A DNA stretch of 64,000 bases from a bacterium (lineage in GTDB: Bacteria > UBA8248 > JACPRG01 > G963555815), in assembly GCA_965261595.1 (NCBI GenBank), contig CBDHDG010000006.1, forward strand, positions 448,001-512,000, given 5' to 3'. The notes below the pieces were generated by a model. That model did no database searches. It was given only the letters and a program-made list of their open reading frames with translations, and was not told the DNA's origin. Both the position numbers and the translations under genes were made by a program. The first letter of the stretch is position 1; every line of letters begins with the position of its first letter. Positions 16,770-58,832 of this stretch are shown here, one piece after another.

Positions 16770-16797
16770 CGGAAACCGGGATCGAAGGAGAACGTTT

Positions 16798-18165: not shown

Positions 18166-18234
18166 GGCCCACGGCGCGCCCGGAGGCTTAAGACGGAATC
18201 AAGCCGTGACGTTTCCGGAACGGAAGGCAAGCGC

Positions 18235-19620
18235 ATGAATCAGGACTTGCGGAGCTTCTTCCGGGCATTTGAGGGGGCCTACGCGGGAGAGGTGATTCGC
18301 GTCTCCGAGCCGGTCGACCTCGAATACGACATCATGGCGCTCGTTCTCGAATACGAGCGGCGGAAGCGCTATCCCATCCTCTTCTTCGAGAACGTCCGGG
18401 GCCATGCGATTCCCGTGATCTGCAACATCCTGGCAAGCCGCCGCTCTCAGGCGATGGCCCTGGGCGTGCCGGAGGCCGAGCTGGCGGAGGCGTACTCCCG
18501 CCGTCTCAAGCGTTACATCGACCCGTGCGTGGTGGAGGCGCCCGCCTTCCGCCAGGTGGTCTGGACCGGCGAGGACGCCGACCTCGGCCGGCTCCCCATC
18601 CCCACCTACTTCCCCGGAGATGCCGGGCCCTACCTCACGGGCGGGATGATGGTGGCCAGGCATCCGGACACCGGCGTGGAAACGGGGGGATTCCACCGGC
18701 TGCAAATCAAAGGACCCCGGAAAATGGGTTGCAGTCTGCATTCGCGCAGACGGATGTTCCACTACCAGCGCCTGTACGAGGAGCGGGGCGAAAACATGCC
18801 CGCGGCGATCTGTCTGGGCCTGCACCCCCTCGTCCTGATGGGCTTCCTCTCCTATCCCCCGCCGGAGATCAGCAAGTTCCAGGCGTGCGGCGGGGTTTTC
18901 GGCGAGCCGATGGAAATCGCCCGGTGCGCCGGACTCGACCTGCATGTGCCGGCGTGGAGCGAGATCGTCATCGAAGGGGAATTCCTGGCGGGCGCGCGCG
19001 AGCCGGAGGGTCCCTTCGGCGAGTTCACGGGGTATTTCTCCGCACGAAGCACCGAGCACGTTTTCCGGGTCCATTCCATTTCCATGCGGGAAAACCCCTG
19101 GTTTCAGAGCATCGCCTCCGGACAGGCCGGGGACCACCGGACCACGAGCGGCCTCCTCCGGGAGGCGGAAGTGCGCAACGCCCTGCGGCGGTCCATCCCC
19201 GGCGTCAAGGACGTTCATGTTCCCTTGTCCGGCGGGAGCGCCTTGACCGCTTTCGTCTCCCTGCGTCAAACCCGGCCGGGAGAGGCGAAACACGCCATCG
19301 CCATCACCATGGGCGTAGATCATTATCTGAAGTTCGTGGTCATCGTGGACGACGACGTGGATGTGTTCAACGAATCCGACGTCCTCTGGGCCATTTCCAC
19401 CCGGGTTCAGGCGGACCGGGACTTGGTGACCGTCTCCGGGTCCTTGGGCGCAATCCTGGACCCCTCGGCCACCGAGCAAGGGTTGACGGCCAAGCTCGGC
19501 ATCGACGCCACGAAACCCATGGGCGATCCGTTCGCGGAAAGGCTGCTGATGGACCCCGGGAAAGCGGCGTGGGCGCGCTCCCTGGCGGAGCGGTTGGCAG
19601 CGAAGGAAACGGCCGTCTGA
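18235..19620 (+). CDS. UbiD-family decarboxylase 3
   Basis: DAGPYLTGG, GFHRLQ, EGPFGEFTGY, DDDVDVFN..VLWAISTR, KLGIDAT. Confidence 0.93.
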   Translation: MNQDLRSFFRAFEGAYAGEVIRVSEPVDLEYDIMALVLEYERRKRYPILFFENVRGHAIPVICNILASRRSQAMALGVPEAELAEAYSRRLKRYIDPCVVEAPAFRQVVWTGEDADLGRLPIPTYFPGDAGPYLTGGMMVARHPDTGVETGGFHRLQIKGPRKMGCSLHSRRRMFHYQRLYEERGENMPAAICLGLHPLVLMGFLSYPPPEISKFQACGGVFGEPMEIARCAGLDLHVPAWSEIVIEGEFLAGAREPEGPFGEFTGYFSARSTEHVFRVHSISMRENPWFQSIASGQAGDHRTTSGLLREAEVRNALRRSIPGVKDVHVPLSGGSALTAFVSLRQTRPGEAKHAIAITMGVDHYLKFVVIVDDDVDVFNESDVLWAISTRVQADRDLVTVSGSLGAILDPSATEQGLTAKLGIDATKPMGDPFAERLLMDPGKAAWARSLAERLAAKETAV

Positions 19621-19902
19621 GCGGGTTGACGCCCGGAGGACGGGCGGTCGGCGCCATGGGGCTCGATGCGGCTTCGGGAGGAGCGCCGCGCCGCGGGATG
19701 CTCGGGGCGGGAAACCACAAACCGCCGCACGCGCCGGAAACGGCTCTTGCGGAAACGGATGCGCCCCGGTATTCTGACATTCATTATATGGAAATCTGTT
19801 GTGGACGGCGGGTGTCTGTGAACCGTCGACCTGAATCGTTCCGGATTCCCCCCCCGCCCTTCGCGGGAGGAACGGGACACCAGACAAGCGAGAGGCTCGG
19901 GC

Positions 19903-20775
19903 ATGCGGAATTTCGAGTTGTTGACGTGCAAGACAGTGGACGATGCGCTGGACGCGCTATCGGCTCACGCCGAGGACGGCAAGGTCCTCGCTGGGGGTGT
20001 GGCGCTTCTGATTGTGATGAAGCAGCGGATCTACTCTCCCGACTACCTGATTGACATCGGCGAGCTATCGGATTTGAGTTACGTCAAGGAGTCGGGCGAC
20101 ACGCTGTGCATCGGCGCGCTGACGACCCACCGGACGATCGAGCGGGACGCGACGGTTCGCTCGGGTTACCCGCTGTTGGCGGAGGCCTTTCACCGTGTGG
20201 GGACGATTCGGATCCGCAACCAGGGGACGATCGGAGGCAACCTGTGCTTCGCCGAGCCCGCGGCGGACCCTCCCGCGGCGCTGACGGCGATGGAGGCGGA
20301 GCTGGTTCTTCGGAAGAAGGGCGGCGAGCGGACGGTGTCGATCAGTGATTTTTTCACCGATTACTACGAGACGTGCGTGGAGCCGGACGAGTTGTTGACC
20401 GAGATTCGGGTGAAGCGTCTTGGGGACAGTTGGCGGACGTCGTACACGAAGTTCACGACGCGCTCGAAGGAGGACAAGCCTGCGCTGAGCGTTGGGGCGG
20501 CGGTGGAGGTGGAGTCGGACGGCGTGACGTGCAAGCAGGCTCGGATCAGCGTAGGGGCCGCGGTGCCGACGCCACGGCGGATGAGCGAGGCGGAGGCCCA
20601 TATGCAGGGCAAGGAGCTGACCGAGTCGGTTCTCACCGAGGCGGGTGAGCTGGCGAAGGGGGCGGTGGATCCGATAGACGACATTCGCGGCTCGGCCGAA
20701 TACAAGCGGGCGATGGTGGGCGTATTTTTGAGACGGACGGTTCAGGCGGCGCTGGCGGGCAACGGGGCCCACTGA
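19903..20775 (+). CDS. Mo-hydroxylase FAD subunit (CoxM-like)
   Basis: VLAGG, IGALTT, IRNQGTIGGN, DIRGSAEYK. Confidence 0.92.
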   Translation: MRNFELLTCKTVDDALDALSAHAEDGKVLAGGVALLIVMKQRIYSPDYLIDIGELSDLSYVKESGDTLCIGALTTHRTIERDATVRSGYPLLAEAFHRVGTIRIRNQGTIGGNLCFAEPAADPPAALTAMEAELVLRKKGGERTVSISDFFTDYYETCVEPDELLTEIRVKRLGDSWRTSYTKFTTRSKEDKPALSVGAAVEVESDGVTCKQARISVGAAVPTPRRMSEAEAHMQGKELTESVLTEAGELAKGAVDPIDDIRGSAEYKRAMVGVFLRRTVQAALAGNGAH

Positions 20776-20799
20776 GCGGGTCCGGGAGGGATTGAGGCA

Positions 20800-21273
20800 A
20801 TGGCGAAGCAAATGGTCACGCTGAGCGTGAACGGCGAGGAGCGCGAGGCGGTCATCGAGTCGAAGAAGAGTTTATTGGACACCCTTCGCGAGGACCTTTA
20901 CCTGACGGGCGCGAAGAAGGGCTGCGACATGGGCGTGTGCGGCACGTGCACGGTGAAGGTGGACGGAGAGCTGGCGAGCGGTTGTCTGACGCTTGCGGTT
21001 CGCGTTCAGGGCAAGGAGATCGAGACGATCGAGGGGGTGAAGGGTGAGGATGGAGGTCTTCACCCGATGCAGGAGAGCTTCATCAAGCGTTGGGCGATCC
21101 AGTGCGGTTACTGCACGCCCGGGATGATCATCGCGTCGATCAAGCTGTTGGAGGACAACCCGCACCCGACGGAGTTTGAGATTCGCCACCACCTGGCGGG
21201 CAACCTCTGCCGCTGCACCGGGTACGCGAAGATCATCGAGGCCGTCCAGGCCGTCGCCGACGGCGAGGTGTGA
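20800..21273 (+). CDS. Mo-hydroxylase 2Fe-2S subunit (CoxS-like)
   Basis: GC..G.CG.C and QCGYCTPG...GNLCRCTGY. Confidence 0.95.
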   Translation: MAKQMVTLSVNGEEREAVIESKKSLLDTLREDLYLTGAKKGCDMGVCGTCTVKVDGELASGCLTLAVRVQGKEIETIEGVKGEDGGLHPMQESFIKRWAIQCGYCTPGMIIASIKLLEDNPHPTEFEIRHHLAGNLCRCTGYAKIIEAVQAVADGEV

Positions 21274-21425
21274 GCGGGCGGACTCAACCGATGACTTTGC
21301 GCCCGTCCGCTTGAACCGGAGCGGACGAGCCCAGGGAAGACAAAGCTCCCTTCCGAGGGATCGCGGAAACAACCGGCGTTGACCGGCCCGAGCCGGTCGA
21401 CAATGTTTTCTGAGAGGGGAAACGG

Positions 21426-23744
21426 ATGACGAGTCACGACTATATCGGGGCTTCCTACGAACGGGGAGACGGCTACGAGAAGGCCAGGGGGCTGGCCATC
21501 TATGGCACCGACGTGACCGTGCCCAAAATGCTTCACGCCAAGATCCTCAGGAGTCCCGCTCCCCACGCCATGATCCGGAACATCAACGTCGAGAAGGCGA
21601 AGCGTCTGAAGGGCGTGCACGCCGTCGTGACGGGACTCGACTATCCCGACTCCCGGTGGGGCGCGCACCTGGCCGACCAGACGATCTACGGCGTGGACCG
21701 GGTGCGGTACGTGGGCGAGGCGGTGGCCGGCGTCGCCGCCGTGGATGAAGACACGGCCCAGGAAGCGGTGGAGCTGATCGAGGTCGAGTACGAAGACCTG
21801 CCGGTGCTGTTCGACCCGGATGAAGCCCTGAAGCCCGACGCGATCCTCATCCACCCGGATCTGGGCGAATACGATTACAACGAGCACGTCCTGGTCAAGC
21901 AACCCGGAACGAACATCGCCAACCTCACGCGGGTTCGCAAGGGGGACATCGACGAGGGCCTGAAAAAATCGGACCTCGTCGTCGAGGGCACGTACGAAAT
22001 CCCGATGGTCCAACACGTCTGCATGGAGCCCCACGTCTGCGTCGCCCAGTTCAACGCCCAGCGGAAGCTCGACATCTGGAGCAGCACCCAGGGCCTGTAC
22101 CTCGCCCGGGAGCACGTGGCCAAAGGCCTGCGCCTTTCCCAAAGCGACGTCCGGATCATCACCATGTACGTCGGGGGCGCCTTCGGGGGCAAGATCAGCG
22201 GCCTCACGGAGGGGCTCGCCGGCTCGCTGGCGCTGAAGACCGACTGCCGTCCCGTCCGCCTGGAGATGACACGGGACGAGGAGTTCATCTCGACGTTCGT
22301 CCGCCAGCCCATGAAGTCCGTGATCCGGACCGGGGTCATGCGCAACGGGGACTTCGTCGCCCGAAAGATCCACAGCGTCTGGGACACGGGGGCCTACGGA
22401 GACTATGAGATCCTGGTCTCCCGCGCGGCGGGCATCTCCTCGATCGGCCCGTACAAGTTCCCCCATATCTGGATCGACTCGTATTGCGTTTACACCAACA
22501 AGCCCATCGCCGGCGCCTATCGGGGCTTCGGAGTGCCCGAAACGTGTTTCGCCTACGAGGGTCAGTTGGAGGTCATCGGGCGCGAGCTCGGGATCGATCC
22601 AATCGAGCTCCGGAACCGGAACTGCGTGGTATCGGGAGACCTCACGGCGACGGGGCAGGTCCTGAAGGGGTGCGGTCTCAAGGAATGCATCCAAAAGGCC
22701 CACGATGCTTTGCACGAAGCGCCCATGGCACCGGCCGCTCCGGGAAAGCGGCGCGGACGGGGCCTGGCCTGCATGTGGAAATTCACCAACGGTTACGCCC
22801 ACGTCTCCAGCGGTCTCAAAATCAACGAGGACGGCAGCGCCATCCTCCTCACCAGCTCCGTGGAGCACGGCCAAGGGGCCCACACCGTTCTGCGGCAGAT
22901 GGCGGGAGAGGCCCTCGGCCTCGACCCGGAAAAGATCGGCATCGCCCACCCGGACACTGCCGTGAGTCCCTACGGCTGGGAAACCTCGTCCAGCAAATCG
23001 GTCTTTTATGACGGGAACGCCATCCTGAAAGCCGCCGAGGACTGCAAGCAACAGTTATTCAAGGTGGCGGCGATCAAGCTGGAAGCCGACCCGCAGGACC
23101 TGGAGACCAAGGAGGGGACCGTCTTCGTCAAAAGCGCCCCGGAGCGCGCCGTCTCCTTTGAGAAGTGCGCGATGGGGACGCCCGGCCCCGACGGCAAGTT
23201 CGTGGGCGGGCCCATCCTCGGCCAGGGGCATTTCACCCCGATCGAGCAGACCGGCCTCGATCCGAAAACCGGACAGGGCAAGCAACCCGGGGCCTTCTGG
23301 ATGTTTGCGGCCCAAGGGGCGGAGGTCGAAGTGGACGAAAGCACCGGAGAGGTCACCCTGGTCCGGATGACCGCGGCGCACGACGTGGGGAAGGCGATCA
23401 ACCTGCAAGGGTGCACCAGTCAGATCGAGGGCGCCCTGGGACAGGGAATCGGACAGTCTTTCTTCGAAGAAATGGTCGTCGAGAACGGTGTGGTGATCAA
23501 CCCGACCCTGATGGACTACAAGATCCCGTGCATGCTCGACTTGCCGCCGATGGTCCCCATGGTCGTCGAAGAGCCGCACCCCGATGGACCCTGGGGGGCG
23601 AAGGGGGTGGGCGAGCCCGGCCTGGCCGCGACGGCGCCCGCGATCGGACACGCCATCTACGACGCAATCGGCGTACAACTCCGGGCCATCCCGTTCACGC
23701 CGGAGCGGGTCCTCGAAGTCATCCAAAAAAGGGATTCCGCGTAG
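21426..23744 (+). CDS. Xanthine dehydrogenase-family molybdopterin subunit (substrate unknown)
   Basis: LRSP..HA, VGGAFGGK, AYRGFG, EHGQG, QIEG..QG, GAKGVGEPG. Confidence 0.93.
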   Translation: MTSHDYIGASYERGDGYEKARGLAIYGTDVTVPKMLHAKILRSPAPHAMIRNINVEKAKRLKGVHAVVTGLDYPDSRWGAHLADQTIYGVDRVRYVGEAVAGVAAVDEDTAQEAVELIEVEYEDLPVLFDPDEALKPDAILIHPDLGEYDYNEHVLVKQPGTNIANLTRVRKGDIDEGLKKSDLVVEGTYEIPMVQHVCMEPHVCVAQFNAQRKLDIWSSTQGLYLAREHVAKGLRLSQSDVRIITMYVGGAFGGKISGLTEGLAGSLALKTDCRPVRLEMTRDEEFISTFVRQPMKSVIRTGVMRNGDFVARKIHSVWDTGAYGDYEILVSRAAGISSIGPYKFPHIWIDSYCVYTNKPIAGAYRGFGVPETCFAYEGQLEVIGRELGIDPIELRNRNCVVSGDLTATGQVLKGCGLKECIQKAHDALHEAPMAPAAPGKRRGRGLACMWKFTNGYAHVSSGLKINEDGSAILLTSSVEHGQGAHTVLRQMAGEALGLDPEKIGIAHPDTAVSPYGWETSSSKSVFYDGNAILKAAEDCKQQLFKVAAIKLEADPQDLETKEGTVFVKSAPERAVSFEKCAMGTPGPDGKFVGGPILGQGHFTPIEQTGLDPKTGQGKQPGAFWMFAAQGAEVEVDESTGEVTLVRMTAAHDVGKAINLQGCTSQIEGALGQGIGQSFFEEMVVENGVVINPTLMDYKIPCMLDLPPMVPMVVEEPHPDGPWGAKGVGEPGLAATAPAIGHAIYDAIGVQLRAIPFTPERVLEVIQKRDSA

Positions 23745-32256: not shown

Positions 32257-33366
32257 TCAGGCCACACGCACGATGGCGGCCACGGTCCCCCCGCCGGGCG
32301 GCCCCTGGTGCTCCGCGCCGCCGGAAACGTAGACCATCGAGTCTCCCACAATCGAGGAGATGACGGCGTTGACGGCGGCCCGCGCGTGGCGGGTGCTGTT
32401 GATGTCGGAGTCGTCCAGCATGGTGTGCCGGCGGCCGCGGATTCGGCCGTCCGGGCTGGCCTCGCACTTGGCCAGGATGTTGACGACGCGCTCCCGTTGC
32501 TCGGGCGACGGGCGCCAGTCGAAAGAGATTCCGGCGTTCTCCAGCGCGGCCTTCACCGCGTCGCCGTCGATGGCGTCCCGCATGACGCTGTGGCCGATGA
32601 CGAGGTCCCCGCCCCACGAGGCGCTGTTGCCCAGCACCATGATCTCGTTGCACAGGAGCTCGATGCCCGAGGAGGTGGAGGCCACGCCCGATGAAAGGGA
32701 CCAATCGCGGCCGATCACCTCGTCGCTCAACCGCCCTTCCGAGATTTCGCCCGTCACAAGGCCGACGCCCAGGGCCGAAGCGGCGCGCGAATACCCCATG
32801 GATTTGTACGTGTTGTCCGAGCAAACGGTCTTTCCCCGCCGCGCGGCCTCCTCGGCCTGGTCCGTGCTGATCAAGGGGGTTTTGACCTGGACGAAATGGA
32901 GGTCTCCGGCGCCCTCGATCCCCGCCTCCCCCATCAGGCGGCGCACCACGGCGGCCGTCTCGCGCACCTGCGCCATGCGGCCCATCTCCTCCGGGAGGAA
33001 ATCGCGCGTATGCCCGGAGGCCATGGCCAGGCGTTTTTCGCCGTTGCCCCCCCCCTCCCCCCCTTCCGGCGACTTGGCGAAAACGGTGAAATGCGGACTC
33101 ATGACCCCTTCGGTTCCGCCCGACATGATCAGGGCGATCCGCTCGCCGGTTTCTTCGCGCGAGATCCCGAGACACCGGCCGAAATAATCCGCCAGAACGA
33201 AATTGCTGAACCCGCGCGCGAAATCGTTGACGCAGCCGTTCCCCTCGGTCTTTCCCATGATGCAGACAACGTCCTCCGCCCCGCACCGGCCGCTGTCGAT
33301 CAGCTCGACGACTCCGCTGATGTCGTCCGGGGACGCCATCGGCACGCGAAAAACCTGTGCCTGCAT
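32257..33366 (-). CDS. atzD: Ring-opening amidohydrolase, cyanuric acid hydrolase/barbiturase family (closer to cyanuric acid hydrolase)
   Basis: [58 protein letters not shown]. Confidence 0.85.
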
Positions 33367-33852: not shown

Positions 33853-34252
33853 GAGGCCACCTTTTCTCCCTTTCCAAGCCGGCCGCGAACCGGAAATCCG
33901 CGGACAGAGCCACCCTTTTCCCGGGATCCCCCCTCTCGTCTCCTTCGAATCCATCCCCGTCGTCATCGAAAGGGCCGAATCAGAATAACAAATCGGACCG
34001 CGGGAAAGAACCCGCCTGGAACCGATTTTCATTCCGTGTTTAGCGTGGCGCCTCCTTTCGGTTATACTAGAGGCTGAAATTTCCAGTCAGGGTTTACAGG
34101 AGGAGAAGTCACTCAGGCGCCGCCGACGCCTTGAGCCGGCCGATGATTCAGCCCATATCCCGTGATGGAAGCAAACGTTCTCATCGCCATGGAAGTCAGA
34201 CTTTTCGAATAAGGGTATCCGTCCGTGCCGACCTCTCGAAAAGGAGCGTCTC

Positions 34253-35659
34253 ATGTTCTTCGAACAAGTCGTACGCCTGGAAACCGGCTGCGTCTCCTAT
34301 GTATGCGGTTGTCCCGGGGGCGGTGAGTGCGCGGTGATCGACCCGCTCTGGGACCCGGCGCCGTACGCACGCATCGCCCAATCTCAAGGCGTATCCATCC
34401 GATACGTCATCGACACCCATTCCCACGCAGACCACGTCTCCGGAGCCCGGCGGCTCGCGCGGCTCACGGGCGCCGAGCTTATCCTTCACGAACTGGCCGA
34501 AATCGAGTATCCCGCACAGCGCGTCAAAGACGGCGACACATTCCGGATGGGATCCGTCCGGATGGAGATCCTCCATACGCCGGGCCACCGGCCGGAGCAC
34601 ATCATCGTCGCCATCACCGATCTCAGCCGCACGCCCGAGCCCTGGATGATCTGCACGGGCGATTTCGTTCTCGTCGGCGACATCGCTCGGCCCGATCTGG
34701 CCCAATCCGCCGCGGAGGGCGCGGGGGAGCTGTTCGACAAGGCCCTGCCCCGCGTCGCCGGGCTGCCCGACCACGTCGAGGTCTACCCGGGCCACGTGGG
34801 GGGCTCGACGTGAGGACGCTCGCTCAGCGGCAAGTTTGCCACCACACTCGGATTTGAGCGCCGCCACAACGCGGCCTTCCAAATGAAGAAACGCGACGAC
34901 TTTATCCGCCACATGTCCGAGGGACTGCCCGATCGGCCGGCGAATATCGCGCGGATCGTCGCCAACAACCAGGGAACCCTCCCCCTGACCCTGGAGGCGC
35001 CCGAGGCCCGGCCGGTTCCGCCGTCGGAGGCGTCGCGGTGGATGGAGGAGGACCCGGCGATCCGGATGATCGACATGCGCGAACCCGCCGGCTTCGGCGA
35101 GGCCCACGTCCCCGGGGCGGGAAACCTCCCGATCTCCAGCGCCGAGTTCGAGCAGCGGGCCGGGTGGGTCTTCGACCCCGACACCCCGTTCCTCCTTCTC
35201 GGCGAAAACGACCGCGACGCCCGGCGAGCATCGCACAAGTTGGCCTTTGTGGGACTGGACAGCAACGTTCGGGGATTCATCCCGGGCGGAATGCCGGCTT
35301 GGCGCGACGCGGGACTTCCCTCCGCGTCCCTTGACCAGATCTCCGTCGAGGGGCTTCATGAGCACCTGCGCGGTGACGCCGGGAACGGCTGGAATATCGT
35401 CGACGTGCGAGAGGACGAGGAGTGGACGGAAGGGCACATCGAGGGGGCCCACCACATGAATTTCAAGAAGATGGGCAAAGCGGATCTTGACCTGCCTTTC
35501 CCCCGCGGGGAGACCCTGGCCGTCATCTGCGGCGGGGGGATACGCAGCAGCACCGGCGCAAGCCTTCTTCAGGGACACGGCTACTCCGGCGTGATCAACG
35601 TCGTGGGCGGCATGAGCGCGTGGCGCGCCGCCGACTACGAGGTCGCCACGGAGAATTGA
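34253..35659 (+). CDS. Persulfide dioxygenase (MBL fold)-rhodanese fusion (CstB/Blh-like); probable selenoprotein with TGA at 34811-34813
   Basis: THSHADH, HTPGH, TGD; YPGHVGGST-(TGA)-GRSLS...TTLGFERRHN continues in frame into two rhodanese domains, the last with CGGGIRS. Confidence 0.85.
34814..34850 (+). promoter_or_regulatory. Candidate bacterial SECIS
   Basis: GCGGCAAGTTTGCCAC begins 13 nt after the TGA; GGCA/TGCC stem with a G-containing loop. Confidence 0.6.
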
Positions 35660-35750: not shown

Positions 35751-37307
35751 GTGGTCACCTATGGATTCGTCATCGACAACCGGAAGTGCATCGGGTGCCA
35801 CGCCTGCACGGTCGCCTGCAAGGCCGAGAACGAGGTCCCCATCGGGGTGAACCGGACTTGGGTCAAGTACATCGAGAAGGGGGAGTTTCCCCTCACCCAG
35901 CGGAAGTTCTCCGTCATGCGGTGCAACCACTGCGCCGACGCCCCCTGTGTGGAAATCTGCCCGGTGACCGCCCTCTACACCCGGCCCGACGGAATCGTGG
36001 ACTTCGACAGCCAGCGGTGCATCGGCTGCAAGGCGTGCATGCAGGCGTGTCCCTACGACGCCATTTACATCGACCCGAACGATCAGACCGCCGCGAAATG
36101 CAATTATTGCTCCCACCGGACGGACGTCGGCCTCGCGCCCCCCTGTGTCACCGTCTGTCCCACGCACGCCATCATCTGCGGCGACCTGGAGGACCCGGGA
36201 AGCGAGATCGCGGGCCTCGTGAACCGCGAGGCGGTCCAGGTCCGAAAACCCGAGAAAGGGACGGACCCGAAGCTTTTCTACATCGAAGGGGACGCCGCTT
36301 CTCTCGACCCTACAGCGGCCTCTCCCGCGGACAGCTATATGTGGAGCCAGGGCGGGGGGGGCGGGGGGGAGACGCTCGAAACGCCCCGCGCCCTTTCCGG
36401 GGGGGGGGCGGCCGGTCCAGACCCCGCAAGCGGACTCGCCGGGCGTCTGGGGACCCTCGCCCGGCGCGTCTACGATGCGCCCCGTGAACAGATGGTCTGG
36501 GGGTGGAAGGTTTCTTTATACATCCTGACGAAGGCCGTCGCGGCCGGGGCGTTCGCCATCCCGCTGTTGGCCTTCGGCCCCGGCCGGCCGCCCGGCCCGA
36601 TGGGGTGGACGGGCGCCCTGCTCGGCCTCATCTTCCTCGGGCTGACCGGTCTCCTTCTCATCCAGGATCTTCGCCGGATGGACCGCTTTCTCTACATTTT
36701 CCTTCGCCCCCAGTGGAAGTCGTGGCTGGTCAAAGGGGGGTTTGTGTTGTTCGGGTTCGGCGGGGTGATCGGCCTGTGGCTCATCAGCGGAATCCTGGGA
36801 GGACGCGCCTTCCAGTCCGCTTTGACCTGGCCGGGGGTCGCCCTGTCTTTTCTGGCGGCCGTATACACGGCCTTCCTGTTCGCGCAGGCCAAAGGGCGGG
36901 ATTTCTGGCAGAGCCCGCTCCTATCGGTCCACATGCTCCTCCACGCGGTTTTGGCCGGGGGGGCGGCGTTGCTCCTGTTCAGCCCGTTCTTTCCGGCGGC
37001 GGCCGGCGACCGGTTGAAGGAGATCCTCCTGGGGGGGCTCGGGGTGAGCTTCCTGGCTTTCATGGGGGAGCTTTTCTTCCCCCACCCGACAAAAGACGCG
37101 CGCGCCGCGGCCCAAATGATCCTGCGCGGTCCCGGCGCGCTCCTGTTTTGGGGAGGCGTCGTGGCCCTGGGTCACGCCGCGGCCGCCGGCCTGCTGCTCT
37201 CGGGAATCGGCGGCCTCGAAGTCCTCAGCGCTCCCTTGATCCTGGGCGGGGTCTTCGCCGCCGCCCACCTCTGGGTGACCATTCCGCAGCGGATCCCGCT
37301 GAGTTGA
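35751..37307 (+). CDS. 4Fe-4S ferredoxin (NrfC/DmsB-like) fused to an NrfD-type membrane anchor
   Basis: CIGCHAC...C, CNHC..APC...CP, CIGCKAC...CPY, KCNYC; hydrophobic C-half starting WGW.VSLY. Confidence 0.92.
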   Translation: MVTYGFVIDNRKCIGCHACTVACKAENEVPIGVNRTWVKYIEKGEFPLTQRKFSVMRCNHCADAPCVEICPVTALYTRPDGIVDFDSQRCIGCKACMQACPYDAIYIDPNDQTAAKCNYCSHRTDVGLAPPCVTVCPTHAIICGDLEDPGSEIAGLVNREAVQVRKPEKGTDPKLFYIEGDAASLDPTAASPADSYMWSQGGGGGGETLETPRALSGGGAAGPDPASGLAGRLGTLARRVYDAPREQMVWGWKVSLYILTKAVAAGAFAIPLLAFGPGRPPGPMGWTGALLGLIFLGLTGLLLIQDLRRMDRFLYIFLRPQWKSWLVKGGFVLFGFGGVIGLWLISGILGGRAFQSALTWPGVALSFLAAVYTAFLFAQAKGRDFWQSPLLSVHMLLHAVLAGGAALLLFSPFFPAAAGDRLKEILLGGLGVSFLAFMGELFFPHPTKDARAAAQMILRGPGALLFWGGVVALGHAAAAGLLLSGIGGLEVLSAPLILGGVFAAAHLWVTIPQRIPLS

Positions 37308-37317
37308 GGAGCGCCGA

Positions 37318-40206
37318 ATGAGCCACCAACCGAAACCCGGCTGGATCGAGCGAACGGCGGAGAGCCTCGGATGGATCCAACGGCTGGACCCGCCGCCCGC
37401 TCCCCGGGAAAAACGCCTGGCGCCGGAGGGGAAATTCGAGCAATATCCGCCCACCGACCGCTGGGGGGACTGGGCCGACCCGGTTCCGCCGGGCACCGAA
37501 GCGGACGCCTCGCGTGAGTGCGTCCTCATTCCCACCACCTGCTTCAACTGCGAAGCGGCCTGCGGCCTGCTCGCCTACGTGGACAAGGAGCGCCTGGAGG
37601 TCCGGAAGTTCGAGGGCAATCCCCTCCACCCGGGAAGCCGGGGGCGGAACTGCGCCAAGGGGCCGGCCACGATCAATCAGATTCGGGACCCCGATCGCAT
37701 CCTGCACCCCCTGAAGCGGGTGGGGCCGCGCGGCGGCGGCCGGTGGGAGCGGGTCGGGTGGGACGCGGTCCTGGACGACCTGGCCGCCCGCATCCGCGAA
37801 AGCCTCACCGGGGGAAAACCGGAGGAGGTGATGTATCACGTCGGCAGACCCGGCTACGAGGGATCCGTCGAGCGGGTCCTCAAGGCGTGGGGCATCGACG
37901 GCCACAACAGCCACACTAACGTCTGCTCGGCGGCCGCCCGTCTCGGTTATCACCTCTGGCAGGGGTCCGACCGTCCTTCCCCGGACCATCAACGGTCCCG
38001 CTTCATCCTCCTCATGAGCTCTCACCTGGAGGCGGGCCACTATTTCAACCCGCACGCCCAGCGCATCATCGAGGGCAAGCTGGCCGGCGCCAAACTGGCG
38101 GTCATCGACCCCCGGCTGTCGAATACGGCCGCCCGGGCGGATACCTGGCTCGCGCCTTATCCCGGGACCGAGGGGGCCCTTCTGCTGGCCATGGCCCATG
38201 TCCTCCTGGAAGAAGACCTCTTCGACCGGGCGTACGTGGAGACCTGGGTCAACTGGGAGGAGTATCTGAGGGAGGAGGCGGGCCTGTCCGGGGCCTCCTT
38301 TGATGTCTTTCTCTCAGAAATCAAAGAGGTCTACGCGGCGTACACGCCCGAATTCGCCGAAGCGGAGAGCGGCGTCCCGGCCGCGACGATCCGGAAGTTG
38401 GCCCGGGAGATCGGCCGGGCGGGGTCCGCCTTCGCGACCCACATCTGGCGGGGGGCCGCTTCGGGCCATCTGGGGGGGTGGCAGATCGCCCGCGCCCTTC
38501 ATTTCCTGAGCGTCCTGACCGGCAGCGTAGGGACCCCCGGGGGGACCGCGCCGGCGTCCTGGAACAAAACGAAACCGGCGCCCTTCGACACACCCCCCGC
38601 CGTCAAGTTCTGGAACGAGCTGATCTACCCGAGGGAATACCCCCTCTCGCATTATGAGATGAGCTTCCTCCTCCCCCACTTCCTGAAGGAGGACCGGGGA
38701 AAGCTCAGCGTATACTTCACCCGGGTCTACAACCCCATCTGGACCAACCCCGACGGCTTCACGTGGCTCGAAGTCCTCAAAGACGAGGAGAAGATCGGTC
38801 TGCACGCCGCAATGACGCCGACCTGGAACGAATCGGCCCTGTTCGCCGACTACGTCCTGCCCATGGGGCTCGCGGGCGAGCGTCACGACGTCCAGAGCCA
38901 GGAAACCCATTCGGGGATCTGGGTCTCGTTCCGCCAACCCGTCCTGCGGGTGGCGATGGAGCGGATGGGCAAACCCGTCCAGTGGACCTACGAGGCCAAC
39001 CCGGGGGAGGTGTGGGAAGAGGATGAGTTCTGGATCGAGCTCTCCTGGCGGATCGATCCGGATGGGGATCTCGGCATCCGGCGTCATTTCGAATCCCCCT
39101 ACCGGCCGGGGGAGAAGGTCACGGTCGAGGAATACTACCGCTGGATGTTCGAGAACAGCGTGCCGGGACTCCCGGAGAAGGTGGCCGAAGAGGGCCTCAC
39201 CCCCATCGAGTACATGAAAAAGTACGGGTCCTTCGAGATCCAAAAGGACATTTTCCAAAAGTACACCCGGCGGCTTCCGGCCGAAGAGATGGAGGGCGCG
39301 TCCATCGATCCCCGGACCCGCGTGGCTTCCAGAGACGGCCGGCCGATCGGCGTGGAGATCGCCGGGCGGGTCCTCGAGGGATTTCCGACCCCCTCGCGAA
39401 AACTGGAGTTCTATTCCTCCACGCTGAAGGATTGGGGCTGGCCCGAGCACGCCCTGCCCGGATACGTCTTCAGCCACATCCGTGAAGAAGACATGGGCCC
39501 GGGGGAGCTCATCCTCCTGCCGACCTTCCGCCTGCCCACGCTCATCCACACCCGGTCGGCCAACGCCAAGTGGCTGCTTGAGATCTCCCACCGGAACCCG
39601 GTCTGGATGCATCCGAAGGACTGCGGCCCGTTCGGGCTGAAGACGGGGGACCTGGTCAAGGTCCACACCGAGATCGGGTATTTCGTCAATCGCGTCTGGG
39701 TCACCGAGTCCATCCGGCCGGGGGTGATCGCCTGCTCCCACCACGCGGGCCGGTGGCGGCTGGACGAAAACGAGGGGGGAGGGGGGCGGATGGGCGCCGC
39801 CCTGGTCCGCCTGGAAGAACGGGAGAAGGGCCAATGGCTCCTCCGCCAGATTCACGGCATCAGGCCCTATGAAAGCGAGGACCCGGACACCGCCCGGATC
39901 TGGTGGCAGGACCCCGGCGTCCATCAGAACGCGGCCTTTCCCGTTCACCCGGACCCCGTGAGCGGGATGCACTGCTGGCATCAGAAGGTCCGCATCGAGA
40001 AGGCCGGCCCCGATGACCGGTACGGAGACGTCTTCGCGGACACCCGGAAGTCCTTTGAGATTTACCGCGAGTGGCTTCAGAAGACCCGTCCGGCGCCCGG
40101 CCCCGGCGGATTGAGACGTCCCCTCTGGCTGAATCGTCCCATTCCCTGCGAGCGGGACGCCTACCAATTGACCCCGGAACCGCCGGTGGACGGCCCCCAG
40201 GCGTGA
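37318..40206 (+). CDS. DMSO reductase-family molybdopterin oxidoreductase, no Tat signal
   Basis: TTCFNCEAACG...NCAKG; GHNSHTNVCS; ADYVLP; LIHTRS; WMHP.D. Confidence 0.92.
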   Translation: MSHQPKPGWIERTAESLGWIQRLDPPPAPREKRLAPEGKFEQYPPTDRWGDWADPVPPGTEADASRECVLIPTTCFNCEAACGLLAYVDKERLEVRKFEGNPLHPGSRGRNCAKGPATINQIRDPDRILHPLKRVGPRGGGRWERVGWDAVLDDLAARIRESLTGGKPEEVMYHVGRPGYEGSVERVLKAWGIDGHNSHTNVCSAAARLGYHLWQGSDRPSPDHQRSRFILLMSSHLEAGHYFNPHAQRIIEGKLAGAKLAVIDPRLSNTAARADTWLAPYPGTEGALLLAMAHVLLEEDLFDRAYVETWVNWEEYLREEAGLSGASFDVFLSEIKEVYAAYTPEFAEAESGVPAATIRKLAREIGRAGSAFATHIWRGAASGHLGGWQIARALHFLSVLTGSVGTPGGTAPASWNKTKPAPFDTPPAVKFWNELIYPREYPLSHYEMSFLLPHFLKEDRGKLSVYFTRVYNPIWTNPDGFTWLEVLKDEEKIGLHAAMTPTWNESALFADYVLPMGLAGERHDVQSQETHSGIWVSFRQPVLRVAMERMGKPVQWTYEANPGEVWEEDEFWIELSWRIDPDGDLGIRRHFESPYRPGEKVTVEEYYRWMFENSVPGLPEKVAEEGLTPIEYMKKYGSFEIQKDIFQKYTRRLPAEEMEGASIDPRTRVASRDGRPIGVEIAGRVLEGFPTPSRKLEFYSSTLKDWGWPEHALPGYVFSHIREEDMGPGELILLPTFRLPTLIHTRSANAKWLLEISHRNPVWMHPKDCGPFGLKTGDLVKVHTEIGYFVNRVWVTESIRPGVIACSHHAGRWRLDENEGGGGRMGAALVRLEEREKGQWLLRQIHGIRPYESEDPDTARIWWQDPGVHQNAAFPVHPDPVSGMHCWHQKVRIEKAGPDDRYGDVFADTRKSFEIYREWLQKTRPAPGPGGLRRPLWLNRPIPCERDAYQLTPEPPVDGPQA

Positions 40207-40300
40207 GCGTCTTCGCCGGCCCGCCATGGCCCGGATGGAAGGCCCGCCCGCCCCGCCCCGCCCGACCAATCGCGGCGGGAACGGTTTGCGCGCAAGCTGA

Positions 40301-41116
40301 ATGGAAATGCTCTGGATCTATCTCCTGATCGGTCTCATTACGGGCTTTTGCTCCGGTCTGATCGGCGTGGGCGGGGGGTTTATTCTGATCCCGCTCCTCC
40401 TGCTCGCCCGCGTCCCCATGGAAGTGGCCGTCAGCACCAGCCTGGTTTTCGTCCTGTTCAGCGCGGCCTCCGGGGCGTTGCGACACGGGTTTCAAGGGAC
40501 GGTGGACCGGCGTCTGGCCGGGTCGGTCGCCCCGGTTTCGGTCCTGACCGCCTTCGCCGGCTCCCTGTTGACCGTCCGGTTCCCCACCTCCGTGCTTCAG
40601 TCGCTCCTGGGCATCTGCGTCCTGGCCGGTCTTTATCTCCTGAATCGCAAGGCCCGCCTCCAGGTGGAGCTCACCGCGACGGACCTGCCGGGCCGCTGGA
40701 CCTACGACCGGACGGTCGAGTGGGGGGAGGAATCCATTCACTATCGCCTGGACTTGAAGAAGGCGGCGGGGGTCGGCGGCGTGGTGGGTTTTCTGGCCGG
40801 CCTGTTGGGCGTCGGCGGGGGGTTCTTGATAATCCCCGCCTTCGTCGGCCTGATGGGCATCCCCCTGCGCGTCGCCATCGGAACCTCCCTCCTCACCATC
40901 CTGGCGTCCGCCTTCGTGGGGACTGTGATGCACTGGGGACAAGGAAGCATGGACCTCACCGTGGTCTGGACGACGATCCTGACCGGGATGATCGGGGCGC
41001 AGCTCGGAGCCCTCTGCGTGCCGAAAATGCAAGAGGCGGGGATGAAAATCCTGATGAACGTCCTGCTGGGACTCTCGGCGGCTTATCTATTCGTTCTGGC
41101 GGGAATCGGACTTTGA
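40301..41116 (+). CDS. TauE/SafE sulfite exporter family protein
   Basis: Duplicated G..G.GGGF..IP...A.GTSL motifs. Confidence 0.92.
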   Translation: MEMLWIYLLIGLITGFCSGLIGVGGGFILIPLLLLARVPMEVAVSTSLVFVLFSAASGALRHGFQGTVDRRLAGSVAPVSVLTAFAGSLLTVRFPTSVLQSLLGICVLAGLYLLNRKARLQVELTATDLPGRWTYDRTVEWGEESIHYRLDLKKAAGVGGVVGFLAGLLGVGGGFLIIPAFVGLMGIPLRVAIGTSLLTILASAFVGTVMHWGQGSMDLTVVWTTILTGMIGAQLGALCVPKMQEAGMKILMNVLLGLSAAYLFVLAGIGL

Positions 41117-41710: not shown

Positions 41711-42373
41711 TCAGGCGTGAACCGCGTCCGCCTTCTTTTCTCCGGCCTCCTGCTTCTCTTCAGCCAGGATTTCCCGGATAACGCCCTCCCGAACTTCCGG
41801 CTTCGTCCAGGTGCCCTTGTAGACGATGTTCCCCTCCCGGTCGGCGATGTACGCCATGTTGGACAGCCAACCGAAGGCCTCGTAAATCTTCTGGTCCATA
41901 CCGTCCACCAGAACCGTTACCTTCTTGATACCCTTTTGCTCGACCAGCTCCTTGGCGTAGCCCATTTTCTGCTCATACGAAGCGTGAGCTTCGTACTTGC
42001 CGAAGATCCCTTCATTCGCGTGCGGCGCGCGGACGTAGATGTTGAAAATCTCCAAATCGTCCCCGTACCTTTCGGCCAGATTTTCCATGTGCGGCACTTG
42101 CCGCCGGTACGGCGGTCACGTGATAGCGCCGAACTCGAAGAGCTGGAGCTTCTTTCCGATCAGGTCCACCGTATTGACGCGGCGGCCGTCCGTGGTCTCG
42201 AGCTGGACCGTCGGGATCTTCGAGCCGAGGGCCGCCGCGTCCTGGAATTTTGCGTACACGGCGCTCACCTTCTCGTTGAATTTTATCTTGACGAGCTTCC
42301 ACCAGTTCAGGAACAGGAACGAGTAGAACTTGCTCGGCGGGTTTCTGCCGAATTCACCTCTGGTCTGAATCAT
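41711..42373 (-). CDS. Iodothyronine deiodinase-like thioredoxin-fold protein; probable selenoprotein with TGA at 42118-42116
   Basis: FEFGAIT-(TGA)-PPY is in frame with the downstream ORF; IYVR.PH, VDGMD, G.IVYKG follow the deiodinase pattern. Confidence 0.85.
42088..42115 (-). promoter_or_regulatory. Candidate bacterial SECIS
   Basis: GCGGCAAGTGCCGC (42104-42091) begins 11 nt after the TGA; perfect GCGGC/GCCGC stem. Confidence 0.65.
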
Positions 42374-47825: not shown

Positions 47826-48023
47826 GTGTCTCGTAAAAGGTTTTACATTTCGTGACCCGAATGGTCCCGCTCCGGCCGGGCAAGGAGTCAACCGACCCAA
47901 ACGCCCGGCCTGCCGAAAGGTGTAAACCCGGTGTTTTCAAAGGGAATTATATAGATAAGTGGCATTTCCCCCTTAACATCCGTGCCACTTTCCTATAGGA
48001 TTATCTGTAGGAGGTCAAGGGAG

Positions 48024-49011
48024 ATGGCACACAAAGCACCTGGAAAAGCCCACCGCGTAGGACTCGGATTCGTCCAGTTCACCGAGATGTTCCCCGACAA
48101 CGAGACGGCGGAGAAGTGGATTGCCGAAGTGCGGTGGCCCGATGGCCCGCGTTGCCCAGTGTGCGACTCGGACAAGGTGCAGCACCCGACCGGTCACAAG
48201 ACCATGCCGTACCGGTGCCAAGTCAAGGGATGCCGGCAGAAGTTCAGTGTGAAGACCGGCACCGTCATGGAATCGTCGAAGGTCACCTATCGGGAGTGGG
48301 CCATTGCCGTGTACCTGTTCTGTACGAACCTCAAGGGCGTGTCGTCCATGAAGCTGCACCGGGACCTGAACCGGACTCAAAAGACGAGCTGGCATCTTGC
48401 CCACCGGCTCCGCGAGGCATGGGTGCATGACGAAGGGTTTGCGTTCACCGGACCGGTTGAAGTAGACGAGACCTACATGGGTGGCAAGGAACGCAACAAG
48501 CATGGCGTCAAGAAGATCAACAAGGGTCGTGGGCCTGTTGGCAAGAAGGCGGTTATCGGCATGAAGGACCGGGACACCAACTGGGTCACCGCCATGACGA
48601 TAGACAGGACGGACGCGCCCACGTTGCAGGGTTTCGTGCTTGGGGCAGGTGGCACCCGACGCGAAGGTGTACACCGATGACCACGGCGGGTATTACGGCC
48701 TGCCGAACCACGAGACGGTCAAGCACTCCGTGGGCGAGTACGTGGACGGACAGGCCCACACGAACGGTATCGAGTCCTTTTGGTCCATGCTCAAGAGGGG
48801 CTACCACGGGGTGTACCACCGCATGAGTCCCGAGCACCTGGACAGGTACGTGACGGAGTTCTCGGGACGCCACAATCTGCGGAATGAGGATACGGTTGCC
48901 CAGATGGTCGCCGTGTTCCGGGGCACGGTCGGACGGCGGTTGAAGTACGATGACCTGATTGCCCCCAAGCTCGCTCCGGTGCTGACCGCGCCGGGGAGCG
49001 ACGTGTTCTAG
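48024..49011 (+). pseudogene. IS1595-family transposase, frameshift near 48640
   Basis: CPVC..C...C, VEVDETYMGG; then VYTD, HTNGIESFWS..KRG..G.YH in another frame. Confidence 0.9.
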
Positions 49012-50919: not shown

Positions 50920-51058
50920 TTCTCCGCTCAGCGGGCCGGGAGGGGGAAAGGGGGAGGGGGGAGAGGGGGGGATTGATCCCGCCACGTTCACCGCTTTATA
51001 ATGACTTTCATCCTTCAATGAAGAATGGACTGACCCATCGCATGGGAGACCGATTGCC

Positions 51059-51685
51059 ATGACACCGGATGCCGGAGAAGTTCAAGGAGAAGTCCTCGAG
51101 GACCGAATCGTCGAGCCCCGGGGCCATTACGCACGGGAGGTCCGCCAGGGAGAGGTCCTTCGGATCATCGACATCCAAGGCCAGCAGGTGGCCGACTTCC
51201 TCGCCTTCAACCTCAACCGGCTGGAGGAGAGACTCTCGCCCGAGAACACGGTGAACCTGAACCGCTCGGTGTTCCCCAAGGTCGGCTACACGCTGTTTTC
51301 CGACGAGGCCGGAAAGCTCATGACCATCATCGCCGATACGTGCGGGGTCCACGACATGATCGCCGGGGCCTGCTCCCGGTTCACCAACGAGTACCGCTAC
51401 GGGGTGCCCGACACGCCCAACTGCCGGGACAACTTCGCCGCCGCCGTCAAACCCTGGGGCCTGAACTGGAAGGACGTTCCGTACAACATGAACGTCTTCA
51501 TGAACTGCCCCATCCAGCCCGACGGAACGTTCACCATTGAAACACCCAAATCCAAGGCGGGCGATTATGTCGATTTCCAGGCGGACATGGACGTCCTGGC
51601 GGCCATGTCCAACTGTCCGCAGGAGCGCAACCCCTGCAACTCGGGCGAGCTGAAACCCATGCGGGTCATCCACTACAAACCCTGA
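51059..51685 (+). CDS. DUF1989 (urea carboxylase-associated) family protein
   Basis: GQQVADF, DTCGVHD...AC, NCRDNF, NVFMN, MSNCPQ..NPCN. Confidence 0.92.
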   Translation: MTPDAGEVQGEVLEDRIVEPRGHYAREVRQGEVLRIIDIQGQQVADFLAFNLNRLEERLSPENTVNLNRSVFPKVGYTLFSDEAGKLMTIIADTCGVHDMIAGACSRFTNEYRYGVPDTPNCRDNFAAAVKPWGLNWKDVPYNMNVFMNCPIQPDGTFTIETPKSKAGDYVDFQADMDVLAAMSNCPQERNPCNSGELKPMRVIHYKP

Positions 51686-51757
51686 CGGGACCGTGACGAC
51701 GGCCGGCGGACACCCTTCAAACGCCCCCCCCCCCCCCGGCGCCCTGGAGACCGAGAC

Positions 51758-52582
51758 ATGCGCGGCTACAAAAACCCGGACCTTCTCTGGACCCCAGACC
51801 GGCTGCGGCGGACCCTGGACGGCGGCCCCCCCCTCCCTCCTCTGATTCTGGACATCCGGACGACGCAGGATTACGTGGCCGGGCACATCCCGGGCGCGGT
51901 CCACCTGGACCTCTTCGGCCTGTCCGTCCGGCACACCGGGCCGGAATCCCTGGACTCGTTCTTCTGGATGATGGAGGGCCTGTTCGGCAACCGGGGCGTC
52001 GATCACGGCAAGACCGTCGTCGTCTACGACGAACGGACGGGCACGAGAGCGGCGCGGGCCTTCTGGTTCCTGGAGTATTTCGGGCATGAAGACGTCCACG
52101 TCCTGGACGGCGGATACGACGCCTGGGAGATGGCCGCGCACCCCGTGAGCCGCGACCCGGTGATACCCGAGGGGGCGAGCTTCAAGGCCCGGCCGGTCGC
52201 GGACCGCCTCGCCACGGCGGAGACGATCCGGAAGGGACTCGACGACGGCGGATGCGTGGTCCTGGACACCCGCACCGACGGCGAGTATCACGGAACCGAG
52301 CTCCGCGCCAAGCGGGGCGGGGCGATCCCCGGCGCCGTCCACATCGAGTGGAAGAACAACGTCGAAGACGGCGCGTACAAGAACGCGGAGGACCTCGCCG
52401 CCCTCTACGCGCCGGCCGGCGTGACGCCGGACAAGGACGTATCGGCCTACTGCCAAGGCGGGTACCGCTCGGCTCACGCCTACCTCGCCCTCAGGCTGTT
52501 GGGGTACGAAAAGGTCCGGAACTACATATCGTCCTGGGCCGAATGGGGAGAGCGCGAGGAGCTGCCGATCGAGACGCCGTAG
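51758..52582 (+). CDS. Tandem-domain sulfurtransferase (rhodanese/SseA family)
   Basis: GHIPGA, LDGG, YCQGGYRS, Y..SW.EW. Confidence 0.92.
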   Translation: MRGYKNPDLLWTPDRLRRTLDGGPPLPPLILDIRTTQDYVAGHIPGAVHLDLFGLSVRHTGPESLDSFFWMMEGLFGNRGVDHGKTVVVYDERTGTRAARAFWFLEYFGHEDVHVLDGGYDAWEMAAHPVSRDPVIPEGASFKARPVADRLATAETIRKGLDDGGCVVLDTRTDGEYHGTELRAKRGGAIPGAVHIEWKNNVEDGAYKNAEDLAALYAPAGVTPDKDVSAYCQGGYRSAHAYLALRLLGYEKVRNYISSWAEWGEREELPIETP

Positions 52583-54119: not shown

Positions 54120-54184
54120 GGTTTGACTCCCTTTTTCCCGGTTGGCCGGATGGACGGCCGGACCTCAAGGTTCACACAGCGAGG

Positions 54185-58748: not shown

Positions 58749-58832
58749 ACCTTTTCTCTTCAGCCGGGATCTCTTTGTCGATATCTCCCGGGATTATACA
58801 TGCAATTCGGAGGATTGGCTCTTCCTCCATGC

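Follow-up and report, generated by a model that had tools for sequence, protein, structure and literature searches.

The window analysed here is a stretch of 64,000 nucleotides (positions 448,001 to 512,000 of contig CBDHDG010000006.1, from a bacterium of the UBA8248 lineage), and it carries a gene of the CstB type, a persulfide dioxygenase (PDO) fused to a sulfurtransferase, whose reading frame contains an internal TGA. We conclude that this UGA, codon 187, is very probably read as selenocysteine (Sec) and that the gene then specifies one 468-residue CstB-type selenoprotein. An earlier reading made from the letters alone (hereafter the sequence-only reading) had proposed Sec in place of the dioxygenase-site cysteine, and the proposal gains support, at the level of sequence comparison, from the presence of Cys in this column in 18 of 18 homologues, the retention of the TGA in 111 loci and a conserved hairpin next to it. 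The gene is laid out as follows, in window coordinates.

34253..35659, + strand: whole gene, CstB-type persulfide dioxygenase-sulfurtransferase in its proposed Sec form; 468 codons including one internal UGA, plus a TGA terminator
34242..34246, + strand: AGGAG ribosome-binding site, 6 nt 5' of ATG 34253, as read from the sequence
34253..34810, + strand: codons 1-186, part of the metallo-β-lactamase (MBL)-fold PDO domain (Pfam PF00753); a separate 186-aa protein in gene calls
34811..34813, + strand: in-frame TGA, codon 187, proposed Sec, equivalent to CstB C201 and followed by Gly188, equivalent to G202
35657..35659, + strand: the gene's own terminator, also TGA

The two open reading frame (ORF) pieces from which the sequence-only reading had assembled the gene, 34253-34813 (186 codons plus the TGA) and 34883-35659, do lie in one frame, their starts separated by 630 nt. 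From the TGA to the ATG at 34883 there are 23 codons, GRSLSGKFATTLGFERRHNAAFQ, which continue the family pattern as that reading had claimed and are conserved as protein in 111 loci. The remainder of the gene is likewise open: the read-through product has 468 aa, reads PGHVGGST-U-GR where the TGA falls and carries CGGGIRS in its C-terminal rhodanese, and with the TGA read as Sec the sequence around the break is ...VEVYPGHVGGST-U-GRSLSGKFATTLGFERRHNAAFQMKK... The protein query (P0001) used in the homologue, alignment, NCBIfam and PDB searches carries one extra terminal residue, which leaves the conclusions unaffected.

The TGA column is occupied by Cys in all 18 full-length homologues (40-53% identity), within the motif PGHxAGS[TL]CG[RK], in agreement with the pattern P.H.AGS.CG and the Cys near a non-heme iron that had been put forward for this family. 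The counterpart in Staphylococcus aureus CstB is C201, for which we draw on the consulted parts of a single preprint (PMC12934615). There, C201 and G202 form the apex of a mobile loop and lie 3.4 Å from an Fe(II) bound by H56, H119 and D145; C201 does not ligate the Fe but carries the substrate covalently. It becomes persulfidated and is then S-sulfonated in an Fe- and O2-dependent manner, after which it is carried ~27 Å to the persulfidated rhodanese cysteine C408 and thiosulfate is released. R370 and R413 steer the loop, G198 serves as its hinge, and the C201A and C408A variants are inactive. Selenocysteine goes unmentioned in these parts of the preprint.

Pfam detected in the read-through protein one Lactamase_B domain (PF00753) and two Rhodanese stretches (PF00581). 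The positions of the rhodanese domains and of the codons aligned with CstB catalytic residues are given below.

35015..35287 (~residues 255-345), + strand: middle rhodanese-homology domain, without an active-site Cys loop (Pfam and alignment to 3tp9/3r2u; boundaries approximate, from the secondary structure of the model)
35330..35638 (~residues 360-462), + strand: C-terminal catalytic rhodanese (Pfam and PDB alignment)
35528-35530, + strand: Cys426 codon, equivalent to CstB C408 (alignment; invariant in the 18-homologue alignment)
34418..34420, + strand: His56 codon, equivalent to CstB Fe ligand H56 (PDB alignment; invariant in the 18-homologue alignment)
34586..34588, + strand: His112 codon, equivalent to CstB Fe ligand H119 (PDB alignment; invariant in the 18-homologue alignment)
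34661..34663, + strand: Asp137 codon, equivalent to CstB Fe ligand D145 (PDB alignment; invariant in the 18-homologue alignment)

Among solved structures, the sequence matched the Alicyclobacillus acidocaldarius β-lactamase/rhodanese protein 3tp9 (E 2.8e-74) and S. aureus CstB itself, 3r2u (E 3.5e-61), both of which have Cys at the TGA column. Residue 187 aligns with chain residue 225, which after subtraction of a 24-residue tag offset is C201. Arg386 and Arg431, the equivalents of R370 and R413, are both invariant among the 18 homologues, and the conserved residues H56, H112, D137, R146, G184, G188, R189, R386, C426 and R431 are all retained; where CstB has its loop Cys-Gly dipeptide and hinge G198, Gly184 (the hinge) and Gly188 are present and the Cys position is the UGA, so that the dipeptide would be complete only with Sec or Cys inserted there. 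An AlphaFold2 model built from the 18-homologue alignment reached a mean predicted local distance difference test score (pLDDT) of 87.6 and a predicted template modelling (TM) score (pTM) of 0.85, and Foldseek superposed it on 3tp9 with a TM-score of 0.89 over all three domains. Loop 181-190 of the model had a mean pLDDT of 57, low, as expected of a mobile loop. Judged by alignment and model, the domain order is that of CstB (MBL-fold PDO, pseudo-rhodanese, catalytic rhodanese), and a His2Asp facial triad for Fe(II), a predicted metal site, is present as aligned. The suggestion that the Sec site would be paired with the C-terminal rhodanese Cys of CGGGIRS is consistent with the invariance of C426, the equivalent of C408, and with the retention of R386 and R431.

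The sequence-only reading had named the family CstB/Blh, and only the first half of the name stands, on the CstB-like domain order and the full-length matches to 3tp9 and 3r2u. The Blh model NF040641 scored 52.6 bits against a cut-off of 625 and matched residues 10-76 alone; Blh has its rhodanese N-terminal to the PDO, the opposite of the order here. Glyoxalase II (hydroxyacylglutathione hydrolase, TIGR03413), the name that databases attach to the pieces, is unsupported at 65.7 bits against 200.8, and the Blh, GloB and MoeB names all fell under their NCBIfam cut-offs. No model of NCBIfam release 20, selenoprotein models included, reached its cut-off on the target protein; NF041203 and NF045694 were unmatched.

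To survey relatives in the databases, the 186-residue N-terminal piece was searched against proteins of 102-326 aa, giving 1083 matches at E <= 1e-20. Among the best 120 of these 1083, 119 stop right before the TGA column (...PGHxxGST); the sole exception is a 241-aa fragment of a Cys form. The lengths across all 120 are 186 aa (102 proteins), 185 aa (13) and 184 aa (2), with 195, 198 and 241 aa for the other three. These best 120 are 59-91% identical to the query, whereas full-length Cys forms reach at most 53%. In a library clustered at 50% the top match was a 186-aa representative ending in GST and the next a Cys form with STCGRV. Two related loci, L002 and L026, give read-through products with 65-67% identity to that of the window, yet these are absent as full-length entries from the homologue search, which indicates that public gene calls split them.

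The DNA pattern Y-P-G-H-x-x-G-S-T-TGA-GG was then searched in 185,579 species genomes, a search that covers TGA forms only and leaves aside the frequency of Cys forms. It matched in 112 places, and in 111 of them the frame continues as GRVTSGK..TT.GYERR.N.AL, for about 270-295 further codons in the 67 complete loci; the one match lacking the conserved downstream frame, L105 in a Kiritimatiellia genome, is an apparent chance match. Going by record titles, Chloroflexota account for 64 of the 111 loci and Gemmatimonadota and Acidobacteriota for 18 each; the other 11 include one locus each in Pseudomonadota, Krumholzibacteriota, Nitrospinota and Planctomycetota. Flanking DNA accompanied 80 of the 112 loci. 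The sequence-only reading had allowed for a TGA private to this genome, with Cys in all close relatives; what was found is a TGA kept together with its frame in 111 of 112 pattern matches. At one Promineifilaceae locus, L079, a full-length Cys-type PDO-rhodanese (AGSACGK; locus coordinates 3126-4538, + strand) lies directly downstream of the Sec-type gene.

Two other accounts of the TGA can be weighed on these data. A genome-wide reassignment of UGA to sense (code 4 or code 25) would leave the frame open, and nothing more speaks for it. The 70 complete copies of Sec-form genes end in TAG (29), TGA (22) or TAA (19), and because TGA ends 22 of them it is otherwise a stop in the carriers; it also terminates the target gene and most window ORFs supported by third-position GC content. 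The probability of such a reassignment is negligible. The public annotation instead makes two genes of the locus, a 186-aa MBL protein that stops at the TGA and a double-rhodanese protein of 258 aa with ATG 34883 as its start, and the databases do hold such pieces: P0002, of 258 aa, is 99% identical, 186-aa entries are many, and an ATG stands at 34883. Against two genes, the 23 codons between the pieces are conserved as protein in 111 loci, and Met occurs at +24, the position of ATG 34883 that gene callers take as the second start, in 1 of 106 loci. The break would fall inside the PDO domain, in the loop after PGH, with loss of the C201-equivalent residue and the rest of the domain, and the full-length Cys homologues and solved structures are single chains. 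We consider two separate genes very unlikely.

A hairpin after the TGA had also been claimed, and one is present 3' of the UGA in the form of a candidate selenocysteine insertion sequence (SECIS). In the window it consists of GGCA / AGUU / UGCC at 34829-34840 and can be extended to 34827-34842 with one C.A mismatch (34828/34841).

34827..34842, + strand: SECIS-like hairpin, spanning positions 17-32 with the U of UGA as position 1; stem 34827-34832 / 34837-34842, loop AGUU 34833-34836

RNAalifold, applied to 107 unique 72-nt sequences from the TGA onward, returned a single stem that pairs positions 17-22 with 27-32, composed as follows.

Pair 17-32: G-C in 107 of the 107 sequences
Pair 18-31: U-A in 106, C.A in 1 (the window)
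Pair 19-30: G-C in 107
Pair 20-29: G-C in 48, G-U in 59
Pair 21-28: C-G in 107
Pair 22-27: A-U in 107

The loop across these sequences is AGGU in 85, AGUU in 18, AGGC in 3 and AGAU in 1. An extended lower SECIS stem (10-16 with 33-39) was considered and is not claimed, since its candidate pairs form in no more than 71 of the 107 sequences and usually in far fewer. Codon usage at synonymous sites was compared across 108 unique rows, each 183 nt long with the TGA at its centre. Codon +5 (Ser) is AGT in 106 of 108, with AGC in the window and in L046 alone; +6 (Gly) is GGC and +7 (Lys) is AAG in every row (108/108 each); +8 (Val) is GTT in 86 of 86 and +9 (Val) GTC in 58 of 58. Codon entropy at the other sense positions from -30 to +30 ranges over 0.27-2.4 bits, and TCN encodes the Ser at -2 in 107 of 108. 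These patterns point to a stem-loop conserved at the nucleotide level beyond coding need, a putative SECIS. In the E. coli fdhF SECIS, a small stem-loop follows soon after the UGA and presents G and U in its apical loop, ~22-25 nt from the U of UGA. The hairpin described here is like it in UGA spacing and in its small G/U-containing loop; it differs in having a 6-bp stem with a tetraloop, no bulged U identified and an unrelated sequence.

A second candidate selenoprotein gene lies on the opposite strand of the window.

41711..42373, - strand: deiodinase-like gene, in-frame TGA 42116-42118, site FGAITUPPY

Its product matches PF00837 and falls under the cut-off of NF038285. Deiodinase-like proteins are a listed selenoprotein family in Table 1 of a 2026 catalogue (PMC13188914). 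The gene has a hairpin GCGGC/AAGU/GCCGC 12 nt after the UGA, and the 9-mer GCGGCAAGU is common to it and the target hairpin. A shared SelB would predict that two unrelated genes 7 kb apart carry the same small hairpin after an in-frame UGA, as is observed.

Several observations weigh against decoding of codon 187 as Sec, and most of them bear on two further alternatives. The first is that the TGA arose from TGC or TGT as a nonsense mutation in a dying gene or as a sequencing error. All TGA carriers are metagenome-assembled genomes, and three related loci look damaged: L023 and L036 keep the TGA but stop 36 and 24 codons later, and L046, whose identity to the window is 93.8% across 10,093 nt, keeps the TGA and has masked Ns and frameshifts in the gene. 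The window itself shows stop-codon damage elsewhere, in an ABC ATPase with an in-frame TAG, as well as broken insertion sequence (IS) copies. Yet the same TGA recurs in 111 species-level genomes of several phyla with the downstream frame intact for about 275-290 codons in most, all catalytic residues are kept, and a conserved RNA hairpin stands beside it; decay or error is extremely unlikely.

The second alternative is that the UGA is read through without Sec, by a near-cognate tRNA inserting Trp, Cys or Arg or by Cys carried on tRNA-Sec under selenium scarcity, with the hairpin acting as a read-through stimulator. In its favour, the search for selC gave 0 tRNAs (ARAGORN) and 0 Rfam matches at gathering thresholds in the 64-kb window, SelA, SelB and SelD were absent from the 51 window ORFs scanned with Pfam, and ARAGORN found no tRNA-Sec in the flanks of 60 related loci, which hold ordinary Gln, Ser, Ile, His and Arg tRNAs instead. 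Cys is functional at the site in relatives, and the hairpin is small. Taken alone, the window hairpin has a fold z-score of -0.71, with 45 of 200 shuffles folding as well or better, and at -5.2 kcal/mol, against a mean of -7.9, it is the weakest of the set and has the C.A mismatch; the single-sequence fold is unremarkable, and the significance of the hairpin lies in the comparison with 107 unique relatives. No double compensatory change was found in the stem among the 107 sequences, where support consists of invariance and one G-C/G-U toggle. The Cys paralogue of L079, the sole Cys-form DNA compared, lacks the hairpin codons but is of the distant AGSACGK type. On the other side, the spacing of the hairpin and its G/U-containing tetraloop fit the bacterial SECIS layout, the window's deiodinase-like gene, from an established Sec family, likewise carries a TGA at the Sec position together with the same hairpin core, and at codon 187 the TGA stands in for a redox-active Cys, as is classic for Sec/Cys pairs. 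Read-through of this kind is quite unlikely, and we retain Sec at codon 187 as the preferred reading. The chemistry by which we interpret the site has a single source, the February 2026 preprint on CstB (PMC12934615), and this dependence on one source also counts against our proposal.

The history of the Sec form was approached with a FastTree phylogeny of 68 Sec rows (the window and 67 complete loci) and 119 Cys rows (P0003-P0121), from which 44 partial loci, the chance match L105 and the C-terminal piece P0002 were left out. The method is a quick one, with long branches flagged and no root inferred, so that gain and loss are indistinguishable. The Sec rows, all 68 of them, group with 11 Cys rows in a single clade of 79 that is well supported. 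The tree needs 3 changes between the Sec and Cys states, compared with a mean of 55.6 after shuffling of the labels, and supported branches force at least 2 of the 3. The closest full-length relatives are the Cys 'STCGRVTSGK' proteins (P0003-P0013 and P0245), which belong to the same clade as the Sec forms, share the site motif and have Cys where the Sec forms have UGA; they are 48-53% identical over the whole length, and P0245 is 60% identical in the N-domain.

Comparison with characterised proteins places the gene product within a known enzyme type, the CstB-type enzymes, which are characterised by conversion of two RSSH to thiosulfate with no sulfite set free. With S. aureus CstB and 3tp9 it has in common the three-domain order, the His2Asp triad, the hinge Gly, the X-Gly dipeptide, the rhodanese Cys and the two steering Arg residues; it differs in identity (~30-34%), in the UGA at C201, in the motif (GST-U-GRxxSGK here, GSP-C-GKSLG there) and in its neighbours, since a Psr/Soe-like molybdoenzyme and TauE stand here in place of the genes of the cst operon. 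Single-domain PDOs (human ETHE1, 4chl; Myxococcus, 4ysb) and the BpPRF fusion (5ve3-5) share the MBL-fold Fe(II) dioxygenase domain. These bind free glutathione persulfide and do so without a Cys-Gly loop, according to the consulted parts of PMC12934615. BpPRF has two domains, and its whole-protein superposition is poor (TM 0.43-0.45). The catalogued rhodanese selenoproteins (forms 1-5, including TsoB, NF041203) have in common with the present protein a rhodanese domain, sulfur or selenium chemistry and, on the proposed reading, Sec; their Sec lies in or beside the rhodanese active site, whereas here the rhodanese Cys is kept (CGGGIRS) and the Sec would lie in the MBL domain.

Table 1 of the 2026 catalogue (PMC13188914) lists 119 prokaryotic selenoprotein families, among them rhodanese forms, type III SQR and YeeE selenoproteins, and that table has no MBL-fold, PF00753 or dioxygenase entry. 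Term searches of the main texts of a 2022 review, the deep-Sep paper, a 2016 ISME J survey and the GOS paper (PMC9312934, PMC12013277, PMC5029168 and PMC2398784) gave no entry for a Sec-containing PDO, CstB or MBL-fold protein. The sequence-only reading knew of no characterised Sec form, and a full-text literature search agreed, yielding no publication about a PDO, CstB or MBL-fold protein that contains Sec, although a listing in supplements or in Deng et al. 2026 is possible. What we propose is selenium at the substrate carrier of an enzyme type that is already known, and the large family formed by these proteins appears to be uncatalogued.

The analysis shows the TGA, its frame, the hairpin next to it, the fold and the catalytic residues to be conserved; from these we infer Sec insertion and a chemistry transferred from CstB. 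SelB and Sec-tRNA would be recruited by the small hairpin, which starts 13 nt after the UGA, and Sec would be inserted at codon 187. Sec187-Gly188 would take the place of C201-G202 of CstB at the apex of a mobile loop, beside the Fe(II) site formed by His56, His112 and Asp137. There the selenolate would accept sulfane sulfur from a low-molecular-weight persulfide to give Se-S(-), which Fe(II) and O2 would oxidise to a Se-sulfonate (Se-SO3-). Arg386 and Arg431 would then guide the loop as it swings across to Cys426, the persulfidated cysteine of the C-terminal rhodanese, and the departure of thiosulfate would regenerate the selenolate. Selenium would be the better nucleophile and leaving group in both transfers, and it would resist irreversible over-oxidation beside an O2-activating iron.

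Downstream, on the same strand, lie three genes that suggest an operon role for the enzyme.

35751..37307, + strand: fused 4Fe-4S (NrfC/TtrB-like) and NrfD-like membrane subunit (Pfam Fer4_11 and NrfD; best NCBIfam match TtrB, under cut-off)
37318..40206, + strand: molybdopterin oxidoreductase catalytic subunit, 962 aa, Psr/Phs/Soe-like, without a twin-arginine N-terminus
40301..41116, + strand: TauE/SafE sulfite-exporter family gene (Pfam PF01925, E 6e-49)

The best solved relatives of the molybdenum (Mo) subunit are PsrA/Phs (2vpw, 1e-38) and ArrA; in NCBIfam its best matches, the DmsA family, PhsA and TtrB, were all under cut-off. SoeABC is described as cytoplasmic in the consulted part of PMC11507549, and by analogy the missing twin-arginine motif makes a SoeABC-like identity of this molybdoenzyme a lead, not a finding. 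In 31 of 80 loci the Sec gene has a Mo-subunit homologue (46-63% identity) as its same-strand neighbour, and the NrfC/D part is present in 11. When ORFs flanking the gene were clustered in the 57 loci that span 6 kb or more, the largest cluster (antisense ORFs over the gene) being ignored, the recurring neighbours were the Mo subunit (25 loci), two half-size YeeE/YedE (PF04143) genes (19 and 18), a NarJ/TorD-like chaperone (18), an SQR-like flavoprotein (6) and DUF1641 (5). As predicted from these families, the gene context across loci is one of sulfur oxidation and transport. The set at 35751-41116 may form a cytoplasm-facing Soe/Psr-like sulfur oxidoreductase with an exporter, in which case a Psr/Soe-like molybdoenzyme without a Tat (twin-arginine translocation) motif and a TauE exporter would serve the cytoplasmic disposal of oxidised sulfur.

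Elsewhere in the window, the ABC transporter ATPase mentioned above (57915-58793, - strand) has its in-frame TAG at 58305-58307, in the signature motif LSGGM*QRV, likely a nonsense mutation or sequence error. An IS1595-type transposase at 8245-9108 (- strand) looks intact, a second copy at 47955-49011 (+ strand) is broken into two frames that overlap, and the stretch 9604-10182 (+ strand) is a DDE_Tnp_1 fragment. There are four UbiD-family decarboxylase paralogues, two of them adjacent: 11971-13398, 16714-18165 and 18166-19620 (+ strand) and 52728-54164 (- strand). Near these are subunits of a xanthine-dehydrogenase-type Mo enzyme (19822-23744) and an AtzD/barbiturase-like ring-opening amidohydrolase (32257-33366, - strand). 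At 51005-52582 (+ strand) a DUF1989 gene is followed, in-frame across a TGA, by a double-rhodanese gene like 3-mercaptopyruvate sulfurtransferase; considered as a further Sec candidate, the pair is read instead as two ordinary adjacent genes.

With moderate confidence, we propose that these genes constitute an uncatalogued and widespread selenoprotein family, which would be the first Sec-dependent non-heme-iron dioxygenase. Its selenium would be neither a metal ligand nor a simple mimic of a redox thiol but a covalent carrier, loaded as Se-S-, held during Fe/O2 oxidation to Se-SO3- and delivered ~27 Å to the rhodanese persulfide. The family would have mainly a single origin and would have spread through Chloroflexota, Gemmatimonadota and Acidobacteriota, coupled in Chloroflexota to a cytoplasm-facing Psr/Soe-type molybdoenzyme.

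For annotation, public gene calls make two entries of the enzyme, an 'MBL fold metallo-hydrolase' of 186 aa and a 'rhodanese/hydroxyacylglutathione hydrolase' of ~260-290 aa, and because of this split the capacity for sulfide detoxification would be mis-scored in many genomes of Chloroflexota, Gemmatimonadota and Acidobacteriota. The hairpin core AGUGGCAAGGUUGYCAC offers a handle with which these lineages can be searched for further members and perhaps for other genes of selenoproteins. If the loop residue does bear first a persulfide and then an S-sulfonate, the natural Sec/Cys pair at the CstB carrier site would put the CstB mechanism to a natural test and allow a comparison of which step (loading, oxygenation or transfer) selenium speeds or protects, and selenoprotein biology would gain an MBL-fold Fe(II) dioxygenase class together with several little-studied phyla.

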